Part shown: one piece after another, positions 9,611-55,637 of the stretch | How the letters are laid out: every line of letters begins with the position of its first letter | How positions within the stretch are numbered: the first letter of the stretch is position 1 | Source: Acidobacteriota bacterium | GTDB taxonomy: Bacteria > Acidobacteriota > UBA6911 > RPQK01 > JAJDTT01 | DNA: 64,000 bases | Assembly (NCBI GenBank): GCA_965209055.1 | Contig: OZ242374.1 | Location: 2,624,001 to 2,688,000 of the forward strand | Direction: 5' to 3' | Notes under the pieces: model-generated | The model's input: the letters and a program-made list of their open reading frames with translations, nothing else | Database searches by the model: none | What the model was told of the DNA's origin: nothing | Position numbers and translations under genes: made by a program

Positions 9611-9685
9611 AGGTGCGTAGCTCAGGGGGAGAGCACTTCCTTGACGCGGAAGGGGTCAGCGGTTCAAATCCGCTCGCACCTACCA
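9611..9685 (+). tRNA. tRNA-Val(GAC)
   Basis: Cloverleaf AGGTGCG/CGCACCT, anticodon arm CTTCC-TT-GAC-GC-GGAAG, GGTTCAAATCC, CCA end. Confidence 0.97.
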
Positions 9686-16604: not shown

Positions 16605-16780
16605 CCCGGCCCCTGCGATGCGCGTGATGGTTTGTGAGATTTGAGTCAACACTTATGAATCGGGAGCCTGAGTCCGGACGTCATGAGTTTCTCCGGGATC
16701 GGTGAAACCTGAGGCCGACGGCAGGGCACCCACCTGTTTTCAACAGGTTCAATCTCACGTTCCACACGGCAGAGCGGGGG
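16605..16780 (+). ncRNA. ssrS: 6S RNA
   Basis: Canonical zapA-6S-rny position; long rod with GTGAGATT pairing to AATCTCAC and central GGGAGCC...GGCACCCACCTG. Ends approximate. Confidence 0.85.
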
Positions 16781-16850
16781 TGATCCATCGCGTGCGCATC
16801 GTCCCGTCCCGCATCGGTTGCTCACCCTGGCTCCAGCAGGAGCGCATGAC

Positions 16851-35834: not shown

Positions 35835-35909
35835 TCGGGGGTCGTCCAATTGGTAGGACAGCGGCCTTTGGAGCCGCCGATCCAGGTTCGAGTCCTGGCC
35901 CCCGAGCCA
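35835..35909 (+). tRNA. tRNA-Gln(TTG)
   Basis: TCGGGGG/CCCCCGA acceptor, GCGGC-CT-TTG-GA-GCCGC anticodon arm, GGTTCGAGTCC, CCA. Confidence 0.96.
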
Positions 35910-50449: not shown

Positions 50450-50590
50450 CAGCCCACTTGGCGCAGACAGCCGAAAGAAAAGGGACAGCCCACTTGGCGG
50501 AAAGCAGCCGAAAGAAAAGGGACAGCCCACTTGGCGAACGCACTCGCGGAACGGAACGGATACGGAACGGAAAAGGGACAGTCTCTATTT
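50450..50590 (+). repeat. Tandem repeats upstream of RAYT (37-bp period)
   Basis: CAGCCGAAAGAAAAGGGACAGCCCACTTGGCG at 50468-50499 and 50505-50536, partial copy 50450-50463, AAAAGGGACAG again at 50571. Confidence 0.9.
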
Positions 50591-50685
50591 CGGTTCGTCC
50601 TTCCCGGTTCTGGATCGTTGTTGTCATCAGGGGCGCGAATCGCCTCCACTGGGAGTCCGATCCCGAAACCCGGAGGACCACGACC

Positions 50686-51645
50686 ATGGCCCGAACTGCC
50701 CGACACAAGAGCTCAGAAGCCGCCTTCTATCACGTCACCAATCGAGTCGTCGGCCGGCCCGGCTGGTTCCCCTTCAGGAATCGCCAGTCCCGTCTCAAAC
50801 TCCTGCACATGATGTTGTTCTACGTGAACGCCTACCGCTGTCGCCTGGCTGCCTACCAGATCATGGACAATCACTTCCACCTCGTCGTCCATTTCGAGAA
50901 GTTCCGCTCCCTGTCCGGTAAGGAGCTGGAGGACCATGCCGGGCAGTTCTATGGACACCGGGCGGAAGAGGTCACTGGCGATTGGACCGACACCCAATGG
51001 AAGTCCTTCAATCGGCGGCTGTTCGACCTGTCGAGACTGATGGCCGACCTGGACGGACATTACGCACGGTGGTTCAACGACACGCATGAGCGGCGAGGTC
51101 ATCTCTGGGGCGATCGTTTCAAGAGTTCCGAACTGCTCGATGAACAGGCCGTCCAGGACGTCATACTCTACGTGGAGCTCAATCCGGTCCGAGCCGGACT
51201 GGTCCAGCGGCCCGGGCAGTGGAAGTGGGGCTCGGCCTGCTGGCGGCTCAACGGCCAGGATCAATATCTGATTCCACTGGGCGAGCTGTTTCCTGAGGAT
51301 CCCGGAGAGGAATTGTACAGCAGTTACCGGGCGCGGCTGTACCATCGAGGCGCGGTTCCCACCCGGGAGAACCAGGCCGCCATCCCCGACTGGATCCTCC
51401 ATCAGGAGGAGCGACGGGGATTCGCCCGCCCCGGCGGATTTCGTCGGCGTCTGCGTTTTCTGACTGACGGGCTGGCCGTGGGGCCGGCGGCGAAGGTGGC
51501 GCAACTGCTGGAGACCTATCGGCGGCAAGGTCGATATCGACGCCGCCGAAACCCCATCCCCCAACTGGGCGGAGCGCTGTATTCCCTGCGGATACATCCA
51601 CACAGATTCCAACGATATCCCAAGACGTCCCGGATTATCTATTAA
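50686..51645 (+). CDS. REP-associated tyrosine transposase (RAYT, Y1 HUH) with native 3' end displaced
   Basis: YHVTNR, MDNHFHL (HUH), GHLWGDRFKS, YVELNPVRAG, WKWGS. Codons after 51591 come from the inserted element. Confidence 0.88.
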   Translation: MARTARHKSSEAAFYHVTNRVVGRPGWFPFRNRQSRLKLLHMMLFYVNAYRCRLAAYQIMDNHFHLVVHFEKFRSLSGKELEDHAGQFYGHRAEEVTGDWTDTQWKSFNRRLFDLSRLMADLDGHYARWFNDTHERRGHLWGDRFKSSELLDEQAVQDVILYVELNPVRAGLVQRPGQWKWGSACWRLNGQDQYLIPLGELFPEDPGEELYSSYRARLYHRGAVPTRENQAAIPDWILHQEERRGFARPGGFRRRLRFLTDGLAVGPAAKVAQLLETYRRQGRYRRRRNPIPQLGGALYSLRIHPHRFQRYPKTSRIIY

Positions 51646-51706
51646 GTGGTGTAATTACTGCGAGTTAGATCTAATCTGGACCCGTTTCTCTTGCCCGAGA
51701 CGTCCC

Positions 51707-51735
51707 TTGATATCCAGCTCCATCCGCTATATTAT
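51707..51735 (+). promoter_or_regulatory. Putative sigma70 promoter of the integrase (likely leaderless mRNA)
   Basis: TTGATA-17 bp-TATTAT, ATG at 51742 follows 6 nt after the -10 box, no SD. Confidence 0.6.
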
Positions 51736-51741
51736 GTGGTA

Positions 51742-52977
51742 ATGAGTGAAGTAAAGAATACGACCGCTCCAGCCCGGAAAACTAAGCCGAAGGGTCGCCA
51801 TCCTCACAAGGCGCTCTCCGCCGCATTCGTGCGCTCGGCCCCGCCGGGCAGACACTGCGACGGCAATGGCCTCTACCTCTTCGTCCAGCCGAGCGGAGCC
51901 CGGAGCTGGGTCCAACGCCTCGTCATCCGGGGCCGCCGCCGCGACTTCGGACTCGGCAGCGTGGCACTGGTCTCGCTCGCCGAGGCCCGCGAGAAGGCGC
52001 GGGCCAACCGCAAGCTGGCCCGCGAGGGGGGAGATCCGCTGGCCGAAAGACGCCGCGCCTGGAACATGCCGACCTTTGCCGAAGCCGTCAAGCGGGTAGT
52101 GGAGCAGAAGCGGTCCGGCTGGCGCAATCCGAGGGTGGCTCAGGACTGGATGGTGAGCCTGGGGCGCTACGCCTTTCCTCACATCGGGAGGCTGCCGGTC
52201 TCGGAGGTGACGAGTGCCGACGTGATCGGGATTCTGGCTCCGATCTGGCACGAGAAGCCGCCCACCGCCCGGAAGCTGCGCCAGCGCATCCGCGCGGTCC
52301 TGGAGTGGGCCGTGGCGATGGAATTCAGGATCGACAACCCCTGCGACCGCGTCGGGTCGGTTCTCGGAACACAGGACGCCGTGGTGCGGCACATGCGGGC
52401 CTTGCCGCATCGGGAGGTGGCCTCGGCGCTCCGGAAGGTGCGGGCCTCGGACGCGGCGCCCGTGTCCATGCTGGCCTTCGAGTTCCTGGTGCTCACGGCG
52501 GCGAGGTGGGGCGAGGTGCGGTGGGCCGAGTGGTCGGAGATCGATCCGGCGCAAAGGACGTGGACGGTTCCGGCGACGCGCATGAAGTCCAAACGCGAGC
52601 ACCGGGTGCCGCTGTGTGGCCGGGCGAAGGAAATTCTGGCCGAAACACGGACGCTGGAGAATGGAACCGCCCGGCTGGTCTTCACCCGAAGGGGCGGAAA
52701 GCCGCTCGCCGAGGGGGCGCTGCGCCATCTGCTCCGCCGGAACGGGATCCCGGCCGTGCCGCACGGGTTCCGGTCGTCGTTCCGGGACTGGGCCGCCGAG
52801 GAGACGGACCATCCACGCGAGGTGGTCGAGGCGGCGCTGGCGCATGTGGTGAAGAACAAGGTCGAGGCGGCGTACCGGCGCACGGACCTGTTCGAGCGGC
52901 GGCGTGTGCTCATGGAGGACTGGGCGGGCTATCTGGCCGGCGGGAGTCGGCAACTGGTGTCCGGTCGGCGGCGTTGA
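51742..52977 (+). CDS. Tyrosine integrase with arm-type DNA-binding domain (P4/DUF4102-like)
   Basis: DGNGLYL, GLGS..VSLAEAR; catalytic R (TAAR), K (MKSK), HGFR, LAH, AAY all intact. Confidence 0.93.
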   Translation: MSEVKNTTAPARKTKPKGRHPHKALSAAFVRSAPPGRHCDGNGLYLFVQPSGARSWVQRLVIRGRRRDFGLGSVALVSLAEAREKARANRKLAREGGDPLAERRRAWNMPTFAEAVKRVVEQKRSGWRNPRVAQDWMVSLGRYAFPHIGRLPVSEVTSADVIGILAPIWHEKPPTARKLRQRIRAVLEWAVAMEFRIDNPCDRVGSVLGTQDAVVRHMRALPHREVASALRKVRASDAAPVSMLAFEFLVLTAARWGEVRWAEWSEIDPAQRTWTVPATRMKSKREHRVPLCGRAKEILAETRTLENGTARLVFTRRGGKPLAEGALRHLLRRNGIPAVPHGFRSSFRDWAAEETDHPREVVEAALAHVVKNKVEAAYRRTDLFERRRVLMEDWAGYLAGGSRQLVSGRRR

Positions 52978-53033
52978 GCCGCCGTGGTGGTCCTCCCGGC
53001 CGGCTTCGGGATCTGGCGTTCGAGTTGGCTTCC

Positions 53034-53344
53034 GGGAGGTCGGTTTTGACCGCTGAAAAGTGGCGTGTCGTGGCCGTACGGGAGTGTGAACGGGACATGC
53101 GGGGTGGATTCACAAAAAGCGGTCCCGGCGATTCACAACTCCGCTTCCCCCGATCTTTTTTCCTTTCAGTCAGTTGCGGCCACATTCCCGGCTTCGCCGC
53201 GCCCGCACGGGGAAATCGGAGGTGGATGGGAGCGACCCCCCCTTTTTCCTGCCCGGTGCGGGCGCGGGGGTGTGGCGCCATTCACATTTGCGCCACACCC
53301 CCTGGGGGGGTCGCTCCCATCCAATTGATCCCTGACGGGAAGGT
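53034..53344. repeat. Structured non-coding unit 1 (hexamer TTCACA)
   Basis: 20-bp perfect stem 53223-53242/53304-53323, inner 13-bp stem 53266-53278/53290-53302; homologous to units 2 and 3. Confidence 0.85.
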
Positions 53345-53579
53345 GGAAGAACCGCCCTATGAAGTAGAGAAACGTGGCCCTCGTTCCGGGTGGAGCGGCG
53401 GCAGTGATCTGGCGCACCGGATAGGATCCCTTTCCCGGACTTGGAGACGTTCCCGTGTCGGATCGGATCGCGGTTCACGAGCCGATGCTGCATGCGGTGA
53501 TCCAGGCGGGGGACGATTTGGCTCCAAGCGTCGCCGTCCCTGCCCACTGATTCCTTTCGGTGTCCTGGATCCTTGCGCC

Positions 53580-53865
53580 ACGCGGTGGCGAGTCCACAGA
53601 AATGCGGCTGCGCCAGCGACTCCACCAGAATGATATCGCGGCCGTGCGGCACGGGTTCCGGTCGTCGTTCCGGGACCAGGCGGAGGAGGAGACGGACCAT
53701 CCGCGCGAGGTCGTCGAGGCGGCGCTGGCGCAGGTGGCGAAAAACAAAGTCGAGGCGGCGAATCGGCGGACGGACCTGTTCGAGCGCCGGCGTCGGCTCA
53801 TGGAGGACTGGGCGAGCTATCTGGCTGGCGGGAGTCGGCAACCGGCGTCCGTCCGGCTCCGTTGA
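53580..53865 (+). pseudogene. Duplicated integrase C-terminal fragment with catalytic His->Gln and Tyr->Asn
   Basis: HGFRSSFRD...LAQV...EAANRRTDLF vs LAHV...EAAYRRTDLF; similarity continues ~90 bp past the stop. Confidence 0.85.
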
Positions 53866-53921
53866 TCCGCCGTGGTCGTCCTCCCGGCAGGTTTCGTAAT
53901 CTGGGGTTCGAGCCGGATTCC

Positions 53922-54229
53922 GGGAGGTCGATCTTGACCGCTGAAAAGTGGGGTTCCGTGCCGATCGGGGAGTGCACATGAGACAACGGAGGGCATGTGC
54001 ACCATGAGGGCTCTTCGCCGTGCACGGCGACTTTCCTCTAACTTGCTGTCCCCGTTCGGGTTACGGCTCGCCTCGCGGCTCGGCGGTGCCGCTCGGGGAA
54101 AGCGGAGGTGGACGGGAGCGACCCCCCTTTTTTGCCTCCCGGATCGGCAAAGCGGGGCAGGTTGATGCGCACTCTCCGTGCCATCGCCTCGGGGGGTCGC
54201 TCCCGTCCCAATGATCCCTGCCGGGAAGG
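53922..54229. repeat. Structured non-coding unit 2 (hexamer TGTGCA)
   Basis: 18-bp perfect stem 54110-54127/54191-54208, diverged interior. Confidence 0.8.
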
Positions 54230-54545
54230 CGTCTGGATCGCCTGAGCGCGTGGCGCTGCGGCACGGAACGGCGCGGTGGGCAAGCCGCCGCGTGCCAGTG
54301 CTCGTACAAGCGTCTGTGGACGGCCCCATGGCTGGACGGAGTGATCTGGCGGATTGAACAGGCAATCTTCTTCCAGAAATGCGGAGTGTGCTGAAAGGGA
54401 CGCGGGCCGATTCGACGGCTATGGCAGCGTCAGGGCCTCGCTGAGACCGGCCATCGAGTGGCGACCAGGGGCGGAAGATCGCGACGCCGGCGTGGAGATC
54501 GACGACGACGTTCGCGACGCTCTCGTGGCGGGCGACACGCTTGCC

Positions 54546-54853
54546 GGGGAGCTCATTTTGACGGGTACAGAGCGCCCCACCGTGTCGATCCGGGAGTGTA
54601 AGGGAGACAAAGGGGGCAACTTACATCATGGGAGTCTGCAAACTTACACACGCGATTTCCCCGATCTCTTTGTCGCTCATGCTGTTACGGCCATGTTTTC
54701 GGCTCCGCCGTGCCCGCACGGGGAAAGCGGAGGTGGAAGGGAGCGACCCCCCCCTTTTTCCTGCCCGGTGCGGGCGCGGGGGTGTGGCGCAATTTACATC
54801 TGCGCCACACCCCCTGGGGGGGTCGCTCCCTTCCAAAATATCCCTGCGGGAAG
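54546..54853. repeat. Structured non-coding unit 3 (hexamer CTTACA)
   Basis: 20-bp stem 54734-54753/54816-54835, inner 14-bp stem 54778-54791/54801-54814. Confidence 0.85.
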
Positions 54854-55637
54854 CCCCCGGAGAAGAATCCGGAAGACCTGTTAGAACTCTGCCAGGCGTC
54901 CGTTCCCCACACGTGGTGCGTGATCCAGGCATGACCACAGGCGAAACGTGCCAATGGGATCCGCAGGTGCAGGTGGATTTGCGGCGTCCTCTTGGACGAG
55001 GAGGTGGACCGAACCCCGGAAGGTCTGAACTTGGAACGGCAGGTGGAGGTCGGCGTCGGGGTCCGCTCCAGGCCCAGCCCCCGGTCCAGGGCCTGGCCGA
55101 CGAGGCGGTCGGCGCGGGTGGTGGTGGTCCGGCCGTCGAAAGCCAGCTCGACGCCGTGGCGGCGTGCGACGAGGCGGCGGCCGAAGCGCAGGGCGCGGTT
55201 TCTCCGGCCAGCCGGAACAGAGGACGGACCGGGGGAACCTATCCCCCCAGACCCCCCAGTGGCGCCAGAACCCCGGGCGGCTCACCTTGCCGCCAGTGAA
55301 CCTGGCGCTCCTGTTCGTCGCGCGTCCCATGAGAATGGGACCCTCGCGCGGTCTCCTCGGGCTTCCAGCCCGGAGTGAGACGTCGGCCCGTTTCGGAAGT
55401 CCTGGCCCAACGGACCCGTCCGGATCCGAATGTCCGCCCCCAATTCCCGGAGCGCGCAGGCTCTTGAAACCTGGGAGTCGAGGCGAGAAACTCGTCCCTG
55501 GAGTCCACGGACCTCCAATAGGGTCGAATGGAATCCCGTTTAGAAGGTGGGTTGCAATGAGGTAAACCGCTCGGGAGAATAGATCCTAACTATATTAATA
55601 TCAGATACTTACGAGAATTCTTCCGTAGACCCTGCGG

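Follow-up and report, generated by a model that had tools for sequence, protein, structure and literature searches.

Class-specific repeats and a conserved hairpin beside genes for a predicted winged-helix protein: a candidate origin-like site of small integrating elements in an Acidobacteriota genome

What kind of site keeps a single layout while the short word written into it changes from copy to copy? The question is raised by three units at positions 53046 to 54853 of a 64,000-nucleotide stretch from an Acidobacteriota bacterium (GCA_965209055.1, contig OZ242374.1, positions 2,624,001 to 2,688,000 of the forward strand; this whole stretch is here called the window). The original prediction read them as three specificity variants of one site, each with its own trans-acting reader. 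A candidate reader was found in a protein here called F1C, and the unit is most likely the docking and processing site of F1C on a family of integrating mobile elements. We give a probability of about 55% to the reading in which the unit is a cis-acting site belonging to this mobile-element protein, composed of class-specific binding repeats and a conserved hairpin, of the type of a replication origin or an origin of transfer (oriT). The three units are laid out as follows.

53046–53343, + strand: unit 1, motif class A (TTCACA); TTGAC at 53046, inverted copy TGTGAA at 53085–53090, direct copies TTCACA at 53109–53114 and TTCACA at 53132–53137
53224–53242 with 53304–53322, + strand: outer stem of unit 1; side hairpin at 53251–53263
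53266–53278 with 53290–53302, + strand: inner stem of unit 1; apex at 53279–53289, with TTCACA at 53281
53329–53340, + strand: tail hairpin of unit 1 (TCCC/GGGA)
53934–54229, + strand: unit 2, motif class C (TGTGCA); TTGAC at 53934, inverted copy TGCACA at 53973–53978, direct copies TGTGCA at 53996–54001 and CGTGCA at 54019–54024
54110–54127 with 54191–54208, + strand: outer stem of unit 2; apex word TGCGCA at 54166
54558–54853, + strand: unit 3, motif class B (CTTACA); TTGAC at 54558, inverted copy TGTAAG at 54597–54602, direct copies CTTACA at 54620–54625 and CTTACA at 54643–54648
54735–54754 with 54816–54834, + strand: outer stem of unit 3; apex word TTTACA at 54793

All hexamer positions of the original prediction proved correct. 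In each unit the first hexamer begins 39 bp downstream of TTGAC, and the three can be aligned over about 300 bp with a mean column identity of 77%. The 5' domain of a unit holds the three motif copies, and the middle segment is lower in GC. The 3' domain is built from an outer stem of 18–20 bp, a side hairpin and an inner stem of 13–15 bp with an apex of 7–11 nt, and it closes with the tail ATCCCTNCGGGAAGG, which includes a hairpin of 4 bp. Counted from the conserved hairpin and tail, the repeats stand 90–190 bp upstream.

The three window units are worn copies of a module of about 290 bases with some 70 occurrences in the genome. Searched with a profile of the three (nhmmer), the genome, a single contig of 6.08 Mb, gave 77 matches, of which 60 score above 180 bits; blastn gave 66 merged places. 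Matches were also found in eight of eight genomes of the genus and in three genomes from outside it (in all, 12 of 41 genomes, counting the own genome). Among the 60 strong copies of the own genome about 32 are of class A, with TGTGAA, TTCACA and [TC]TCACA followed by TTCACA in the apex; about 17 copies are of class B (TGTAAG, CTTACA, CTTACA, apex [CT]TTACA) and 8 of class C (TGCACA, TGTGCA, CGTGCA, apex G[CGT]GCAC). Class D comprises about 12 weaker matches in which GTGTTCCAC is written three times, once in the inner hairpin. Distant units add further classes with the words GTTTTCAC, ATGTGCAC, TTGCGCAC, ATGTACA, TGTACC and TTCCAA, so that there are at least eight motif classes (A to H), in which the word varies jointly at all four positions, inverted, direct (twice) and apical.

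Does the motif really change in concert? We compared the four positions in 159 distinct units from the own genome, the genus and other phyla (four or more phyla in all), leaving aside matches under 45 bits and partial or interrupted copies (c482345m, c3162087m, c6030696m, c6066094p, c4508730p and c1608688m). An exact 6-mer occurs as one inverted and two direct copies in 69 of the 159, and in 65 of these 69 the direct copies are 23 bp apart, so that the spacing predicted from the three window units, where it holds in three of three, generalises. Words of at least six letters were common to the reverse-complemented h1 (the inverted copy) and the loop at a value of 0.62 (permuted mean 0.29, maximum 0.40), to h2 and the loop at 0.67 (mean 0.29, maximum 0.40), and to h3 and the loop at 0.53 (mean 0.28, maximum 0.36). 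For no pair of the four motif positions did any of 300 permutations reach the observed sharing; because related copies are not independent, these permutation values are not to be read as probabilities. The test of independence between upstream hexamers and loop that had been put forward with the original prediction thus came out in its favour, with words shared beyond permutation and spacing conserved. Among units from other phyla, 35 of the 37 that could be classified were concordant, the word being written reverse-complemented first, then direct twice, then in the apex.

The echo in the apex is nevertheless not strict, since 4 of 59 strong copies of the own genome and about 16 of 43 genus-level relatives, as read from a printed table, are discordant. 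Upstream modules and hairpins have been shuffled in many relatives. Within the genus there are 'long forms', in which a class A module is followed after 130 bp by a class B module and this by a hairpin whose apex is of class A. The unit at locus L093 combines an inverted and a distal copy of E type with a middle copy and apex of class A. Such chimeric units imply that modules recombine. The concerted change of the motif within a unit is therefore a tendency and not a law, and chimeras are common.

The hairpin itself is under selection. Across 82 distinct units of the genus and its neighbours, with the structure taken from one member, 83% of cells pair, compared with 38–48% when the partner is slid. 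In the outer stem 95–98% of cells are paired, column pair 167–268 being CG in 66, UA in 5 and AU in 4, and the inner stem has both-sided changes at 10 of 16 pairs. Strong folding and compensatory changes in many stems are also what a structured noncoding RNA of about 270 nt would display, one in which the inverted hexamer pairs with a direct copy or with the apical loop (as alternative pairing or a pseudoknot) and which regulates, for example, expression of the integrase or of F1C, or copy number. In several classes the inverted copy is complementary to the apex over 8–10 nt, as in GTGAAAAC/GTTTTCAC and GTGCGCAAAC/GTTTGCGCAC, and in the minimum-energy fold of most classes its partner is the distal direct copy, the middle one being placed in an apical loop. 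The predicted fold has z = –5.5 on the + strand; against an RNA, folding of the minus strand is just as strong (z = –5.8), and G–U pairs within helices number 105 and 108 on the two strands in the 3' domain and 144 and 125 in the 5' domain, a crude count because each strand was re-folded separately. Since both strands fold equally and G–U pairs are equally common, no single transcribed strand is favoured. At the gathering score of Rfam 15 no unit matches (the window passes only tRNAs and 6S RNA), and at E ≤ 10 only chance-level hairpin matches appear; a promoter-like site was not found in the units. Contigs of a sponge metatranscriptome contain relatives at 90–95% identity and low depth, and a run of unspecified type contains the locus; two raw RNA-seq runs had no read from any part of the stretch and so bear on transcription neither way. 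With the link described below to a predicted DNA-binding protein whose recognition helix is class-specific, the units are more simply taken as sites in DNA, and we regard the RNA explanation as unlikely.

Two gene types precede the units when genes in their flanks are picked by a filter based on GC content at third codon positions (GC3) and then clustered: a P4-like integrase, and a gene, F1, whose product begins with an ArdC-like single-stranded-DNA-binding module (ArdC-N) and a zincin-like peptidase; its C-terminal part of 340 aa, without family, is F1C. F1C is also encoded on its own, by genes of 307 and 310 codons, and a stand-alone protein of class C is encoded at L089 (2400–3329, – strand). 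In the own genome 34 of 42 places found with F1C by tblastn, most of them fragments, end within 121 nt upstream of a unit that has the same orientation. The linkage holds across phyla. Relatives of F1C were confirmed in genome contigs 572 times, and among the best 80 loci kept, the unit profile matches 68, nearly all on the same strand and starting 20–50 nt after the F1C match. These 80 loci come from metagenome-assembled genomes (MAGs) labelled Longimicrobiales, Candidatus Palauibacter, Gemmatimonadota, Acidobacteriota, Thermoanaerobaculia, Vicinamibacteraceae, Terriglobia and Gammaproteobacteria. Even the distant units retain the constant parts GGGAGCGACCCC..., ...GGGGTCGCTCCC and the tail almost letter for letter. 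Many MAGs, from different phyla, hold several copies of the module of F1C and unit (L092–L171), and some of these MAGs bear the names of sponge symbionts; this suggests spread across phyla within one community type.

If F1C reads the motif, its sequence should differ between classes where it would touch DNA. For the class work we used the 56 near-full-length + strand matches among the 68 other-phyla loci with a unit match. In 59 pairs of F1C and unit, the segment before and in the predicted helix 48–60 is class-specific, and the columns of F1C that fully discriminate classes can be counted by region:

Class A signature in F1C: AHPEQVRR
Class E signature in F1C: THHERARR
Class C signature in F1C: IDRWQALRF or IDRFKALRF
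Class F signature in F1C: IHRHTARRF
Class E against class A (sister clades): 7 discriminating columns, 5 within residues 36–60 and 0 beyond residue 250
Class F against class C: 10 discriminating columns, 4 within residues 36–60 and 1 beyond residue 250
Class C against class A: 22 discriminating columns, 8 within residues 36–60 and 11 beyond residue 250

Residues 36–60 make up 8% of F1C. On the structural model these class residues gather at the predicted recognition helix, as would be expected of a reader protein.

The protein was modelled with AlphaFold2 from 33 homologues (predicted local distance difference test, pLDDT, 85.9; predicted template modelling score, pTM, 0.76). The model has an N-terminal winged helix-turn-helix, with helices at residues 19–31, 37–44 and 48–60 and wing strands at 64–69 and 72–77, followed by an alpha/beta domain. 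The top Foldseek rows for it are winged-helix regulators of the ArsR/MarR type, and profile searches gave weak matches to SlyA, TrmB and AbiEi. On this model F1C is predicted to bind DNA through its N-terminal winged helix. Among 7,008 candidates, 3,533 are homologues of the roughly 310-aa F1C at E ≤ 1e-5; nearly all are 305–314 aa long, unnamed and devoid of Pfam domains. R104, R105, D110, Y111, E124, E126, K127 and H192 are conserved in 57–59 of 59 F1C sequences. Invariant residues of these kinds suggest that F1C is an enzyme, its conserved C-terminal core having an enzymatic look at the level of sequence.

These observations lead us to the following reading, in which we infer from sequence that F1C binds the motif, that it may act on DNA catalytically, and that a process is started as a result. 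The variable part of the unit, a motif of 6–10 bp present as one inverted copy, two direct copies and one copy in the apex, would be the binding site of the F1C recognition helix and would set specificity. The constant part, comprising the outer stem of 18–20 bp (GGGAGCGACCCC.../...GGGGTCGCTCCC), a three-way junction and the tail ATCCCTNCGGGAAGG, would be the common substrate of the conserved C-terminal domain. That domain most likely nicks or otherwise processes DNA and so would set off the transfer or the replication of the element once excised. Since a variable part for binding would stand beside a constant part that serves as substrate, the whole would act like an origin (oriT or ori) with separate binding and processing loci, carried on small integrase-borne elements. 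Homology between units ends sharply on the 3' side at ...GGGAAGG(C/T), just past the tail, which would fit a place where DNA is cut and rejoined, and is followed by at least eight unrelated sequence classes; on the upstream side it extends for variable lengths. No clean pair of filled and empty sites came from two 3.3-kb loci compared across the genus, the DNA of the species being too divergent. The company kept by F1C is of the conjugation type and supports transfer: besides the ArdC-like fusion, whose N-terminal half alone has plasmid relatives at about 35% identity, one F1C homologue is fused to VirB8.

Several observations weigh against this reading. In library scans F1C has no Pfam or NCBIfam family, the Rep families included. 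Pfam Replic_Relax (PF13814), which we take to be the family of the MOBC or PD-(D/E)XK relaxases, gave no match in 33 F1C homologues (E ≤ 1) or in the genome (E ≤ 10). Alignment of profiles with hhalign, for which seven Replic_Relax proteins from Acidobacteriota genomes served as the MOBC reference, gave a probability of 4.4% and an E of 0.009, the integrase control giving 0.2%. A model of the C-terminal domain (pLDDT 68) returned nothing from Foldseek at E ≤ 0.001, with stray nuclease rows at E 0.6–1.1. F1C was absent as a protein from 72,556 plasmid records, unit DNA likewise had no match among plasmid records, and neither VirB4 (PF03135) nor a VirD4-type coupling protein (PF02534) was matched in the own genome, which is 98% complete. 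Because of the absence of VirB4- and VirD4-type proteins and of plasmid-borne F1C, we keep the choice between transfer and replication undecided.

The pairing of protein and site also has its exceptions, and these count on the same side. Full-length F1C genes stand beside units at only 5 places in the genome (3 of class D, 1 of class B and 1 of class C), and none of them adjoins class A, the commonest unit class; it follows that most units of the own genome are relics or rely on trans-acting proteins. In many units of the genus, class B repeats are joined to a class A apex. The loci L114 and L153 share a mixed unit, with an inverted copy and apex of class E and direct copies of class A, and their F1C helix types differ. 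Residues 259–299 at the C-terminus of F1C separate the classes about as well as the helix does; this tail physically adjoins the unit, so that its association with class is expected from linkage alone. F1C clades and unit classes are co-inherited, and the covariation may partly reflect descent. One further full-length F1C in the genome is an orphan without a unit; such a gene lies at genome positions 1263620–1264558 on the + strand (L091), is 44% identical to class D and has no unit within 100 kb.

How, then, did three units of different class come to lie side by side in the window? The DNA around them contains the following features.

51691–52977, + strand: gene for a P4-like tyrosine integrase, 428 aa (Pfam Arm-DNA-bind_3, Phage_int_M and Phage_integrase; NCBIfam integrase domain)
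52984–53049, + strand: remnant of the C-terminal codons of F1C before unit 1, ...PAGFGIWRSSWLPGGRF*, from translation against the F1C consensus
53560–53865, + strand: 3' fragment of a second integrase gene before unit 2, 101 codons, with coding-like GC3, clustering with integrase family F0
53872–53937, + strand: remnant of the F1C C-terminus before unit 2, ...PAGFVIWGSSRIPGGRS*, from translation
55024–55206, – strand: inverted F1C-like internal fragment (residues ~72–132) downstream of unit 3, 61% identical to F1C of class D by tblastn (genome positions 2679024–2679206, – strand)

The remnant before unit 1 was compared with the F1C consensus C-terminus, ...IDGFATWRSxRLxG, and homology to the integrase 3' end begins 312 nt upstream of unit 2. 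Positions 51691–54853 are a decayed tandem array, in the order integrase, F1C remnant, unit 1 (class A), integrase 3' fragment, F1C remnant, unit 2 (class C) and unit 3 (class B), and the array is seen again, whole or in part, at five other places of the genome. No intact F1C gene lies within the window, and its three units are orphans. The prediction that each unit is a specificity variant with a reader of its own is borne out as far as a candidate reader with class residues at a predicted helix, and falls short in that the window has no intact gene for it. TTGAC was considered as a –35 box and rejected: the anchor falls in the final codons of the upstream F1C remnant, and, lying inside the last codons of a lost F1C gene, it is not part of a promoter.

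The integrase beside the units invites another explanation, in which the unit is an attP-like site, the hexamers being arm-type sites and the hairpin the core for the adjacent P4-like integrase. In seven copies the unit follows the stop of this integrase, which has an arm-DNA-binding domain, at 52 nt, an arrangement seen in the window; the inner hairpin resembles an inverted repeat of 13–15 bp around a 7-nt spacer, and the 3' boundary of the unit is sharp. This explanation is largely refuted. Integrases whose N-terminal arm-binding domains are 93% identical adjoin units of class A and of class C as well as odd ones. That a unit follows an integrase is a derived arrangement, because the C-terminus of F1C can still be read between the integrase stop (52977) and unit 1, and likewise before unit 2. 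The ends of the elements lie elsewhere. A 4.2-kb element present three times, consisting of integrase, tRNA-Leu on the opposite strand, F1 and a class D unit, starts inside the T-arm of tRNA-Ile or tmRNA. A 2.75-kb element, consisting of an F1C fragment, the unit, a small Zn-ribbon open reading frame (ORF) and a XerC-like integrase, is bounded by the direct repeat GGGACTGTTAGTCCC, a mimic of a tRNA anticodon arm, which places the unit in its interior. Of the analogies offered in the original prediction, the one with the core dyads and arm sites of tyrosine recombinases accordingly fails, since the integrase does not covary with class and the att cores are elsewhere.

Both elements have further details. 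The genome has six tRNA-Leu(UAA) genes, three of which, near-identical, lie inside the 4.2-kb element (477237, 1991443 and 2524782; L039); this element has inserted at the 3' ends of tRNA-Ile and of tmRNA and at one non-tRNA site. The right end of the 2.75-kb element holds the 5' half of a tRNA-Asn-like gene (L034, L035, L036 and other copies), and in two of its copies the 5-nt spacer is inverted (TAACA). Directly upstream of the integrase of copy c816434m (genome ~817,900) is a run of more than 25 G, with shorter G runs at this position in sister copies.

The small ORF and the XerC-like integrase bear on an explanation in terms of gene regulation. F1C would be a transcription factor and the repeats its operators, controlling these two downstream genes, with the hairpin as a terminator, an attenuator or an RNA-stability element between two operons. 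The ORF (MG.MS.PDIH..RLEALRKQAVERLR.RR.YRCP.CG...) is conserved and begins 26–36 nt after the unit at about 10 places, for example at L034, and the XerC-like integrase lies 500–750 nt downstream in 8 unit copies. In structure the N-terminal domain has repressors as its neighbours, and one inverted with several direct repeats is a common operator layout, which we count in favour of regulation. On the other side, the at least eight unrelated sequence classes downstream mean that there is no constant regulated gene, and neither a sigma-70-like promoter nor an intrinsic terminator was found in the units. The invariant R, D, Y, E, K and H residues of the 200-aa C-terminal domain look enzymatic, and the outer-stem sequence is conserved across phyla beyond the needs of a terminator. 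We judge this explanation to be improbable, if the least improbable of the alternatives weighed here. The small ORF, which is Zn-ribbon-like, has at most 131 codons, is often decayed and in one copy is fused to a transposase-like C-terminus, may itself be an excision or regulatory factor.

The gene upstream of the integrase is relevant to a further alternative. Positions 50458–51645 (+ strand) encode a 395-aa protein with a region like a repetitive extragenic palindrome (REP)-associated tyrosine transposase (RAYT), scored at 56 bits by NCBIfam where the cut-off is 80, and with a weak match to Pfam Y1_Tnp; the gene directly precedes the integrase and lies 1.4 kb upstream of unit 1. The units could be a selfish repeat without function, like REP, REPIN or miniature inverted-repeat elements, spread by such a transposase, and the concert of motifs would then be the descent of subfamilies. 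Copy number is high, and many copies are 5'-truncated or solitary. Descent alone cannot explain a motif kept at four places, one of them reverse-complemented, in at least eight classes, and adjacency of gene and unit is conserved across phyla. The RAYT-like gene occurs once among the flanks of the units and does not recur near others; it is F1C to which the units are linked. We consider it very improbable that the units are a repeat of this kind.

Returning to an F1C docking and processing site, we asked which known systems it resembles. The logic of F1C and its unit appears closest, by analogy, to that of the MOBC relaxase TraX and its oriT. In large inverted repeats accompanied by plasmid-specific short repeats, the oriTs of pAD1 and pAM373 offer a comparable arrangement. 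F1C shares with MOBC proteins an N-terminal winged helix-turn-helix followed by a large second domain, and its unit has short direct repeats that would lie tens of bp from a putative processing site. MOBC relaxases (TraX of pAD1 and MobC of CloDF13) have an N-terminal winged helix-turn-helix and then a non-HUH catalytic domain (PMC12857230, PMC6499999), and TraX, which has the winged helix-turn-helix, binds direct repeats 70–120 bp from nic (PMC12857230). Unlike them, F1C is not a detectable member of the family, as the lack of a PF13814 match and the 4.4% between profiles indicate; the unit has one inverted copy, two direct copies at 23 bp and an apex copy instead of five repeats; and the F1C elements are chromosomal, integrase-borne and multicopy, with no type IV secretion system (T4SS) or coupling protein found in the own genome.

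Three other systems share part of the arrangement. Iteron plasmid origins with winged-helix Rep initiators (RepA of pPS10, RepE of F, pi of R6K) likewise have a winged-helix gene beside the site, direct repeats about two helical turns apart (23 bp in the unit) with an inverted copy, and specificity classes; in contrast to these, F1C has no Rep family match, and the long conserved hairpin and tail of the unit are without counterpart. Rolling-circle origins (those of geminiviruses and the double-strand origins of pMV158 or pT181 type) pair lineage-specific iterons with specificity determinants in Rep. In them too, short lineage-specific repeats, one of them inverted, stand beside an invariant hairpin and covary with a few residues of the initiator, but no HUH protein accompanies the units, whose variable motif also occurs in the hairpin apex. 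In oriTs of the pWBG749 family, subtype-specific accessory repeats beside conserved hairpins set which element is mobilised. The likeness lies in class-specific repeats next to a conserved hairpin; the reader there is a small accessory protein, whereas F1C is a winged-helix protein of 310 aa with a large second domain. Among the three analogies put forward in the original prediction, this one with oriT accessory repeats is the nearest.

We suggest, as a tentative extension held with clearly less confidence than the reading itself, that F1C and the unit could be a previously undescribed initiator–origin pair. F1C would then found a new family of DNA-processing enzymes (winged helix plus R-R...D-Y...E-x-E-K...H), unrelated by sequence to HUH, MOBC, MOBH, MOBT or known Rep proteins. 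It would initiate the transfer or replication of small integrase-borne elements that, with no recognisable T4SS, have spread among Acidobacteriota, Gemmatimonadota and Gammaproteobacteria in communities of the sponge type. Specificity would reside in a swappable word of 6–10 bp written four times, one copy standing at the apex of the processed hairpin and one, complementary, being able to pair with the apex copy in single-stranded DNA. A literature search turned up no description of the unit or of F1C, which does not prove their absence from the literature.

The linkage gives more than 3,500 'hypothetical' proteins (E ≤ 1e-5, no Pfam domain) a defined DNA partner, recognisable from sequence, and provides a natural set of at least eight pairs of protein helix and DNA word. 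A recognition code of the winged helix and the action of the second domain on the invariant hairpin can now be tested. So can the way in which small integrative elements that lack a relaxase and a T4SS pass between phyla of uncultured bacteria, some of them associated with sponges. In genome sequences the unit can also serve as a practical marker of such elements and of their relics.

In several genomes and phyla the tail of the unit is interrupted at an identical point (...CCTGCGG^ACTGTTTCTATAAAGTCCGTAAACC...), which looks like the work of an insertion sequence with the small hairpin of the tail as its target; the copies concerned are c1583246p, c1608688m, c3152672m, c3165148m, c3374694p and c4508730p, together with those at L047, L066, L077, L042, L099 and L100. 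The other RNAs of the window are ordinary: 6S RNA at 16607–16784, tRNA-Val(GAC) at 9611–9685 and tRNA-Gln(TTG) at 35835–35909. Two units were called as tRNA-Val by ARAGORN, at genome positions 3841235–3841319 and 5203736–5203820 (anticodons TAC and CAC). These calls were rejected, the folds being poor and the stems unlike those of true tRNA-Val genes; the apices TTCACA and CTTACA merely resemble Val anticodon loops, and the false genes would contaminate tRNA annotation.

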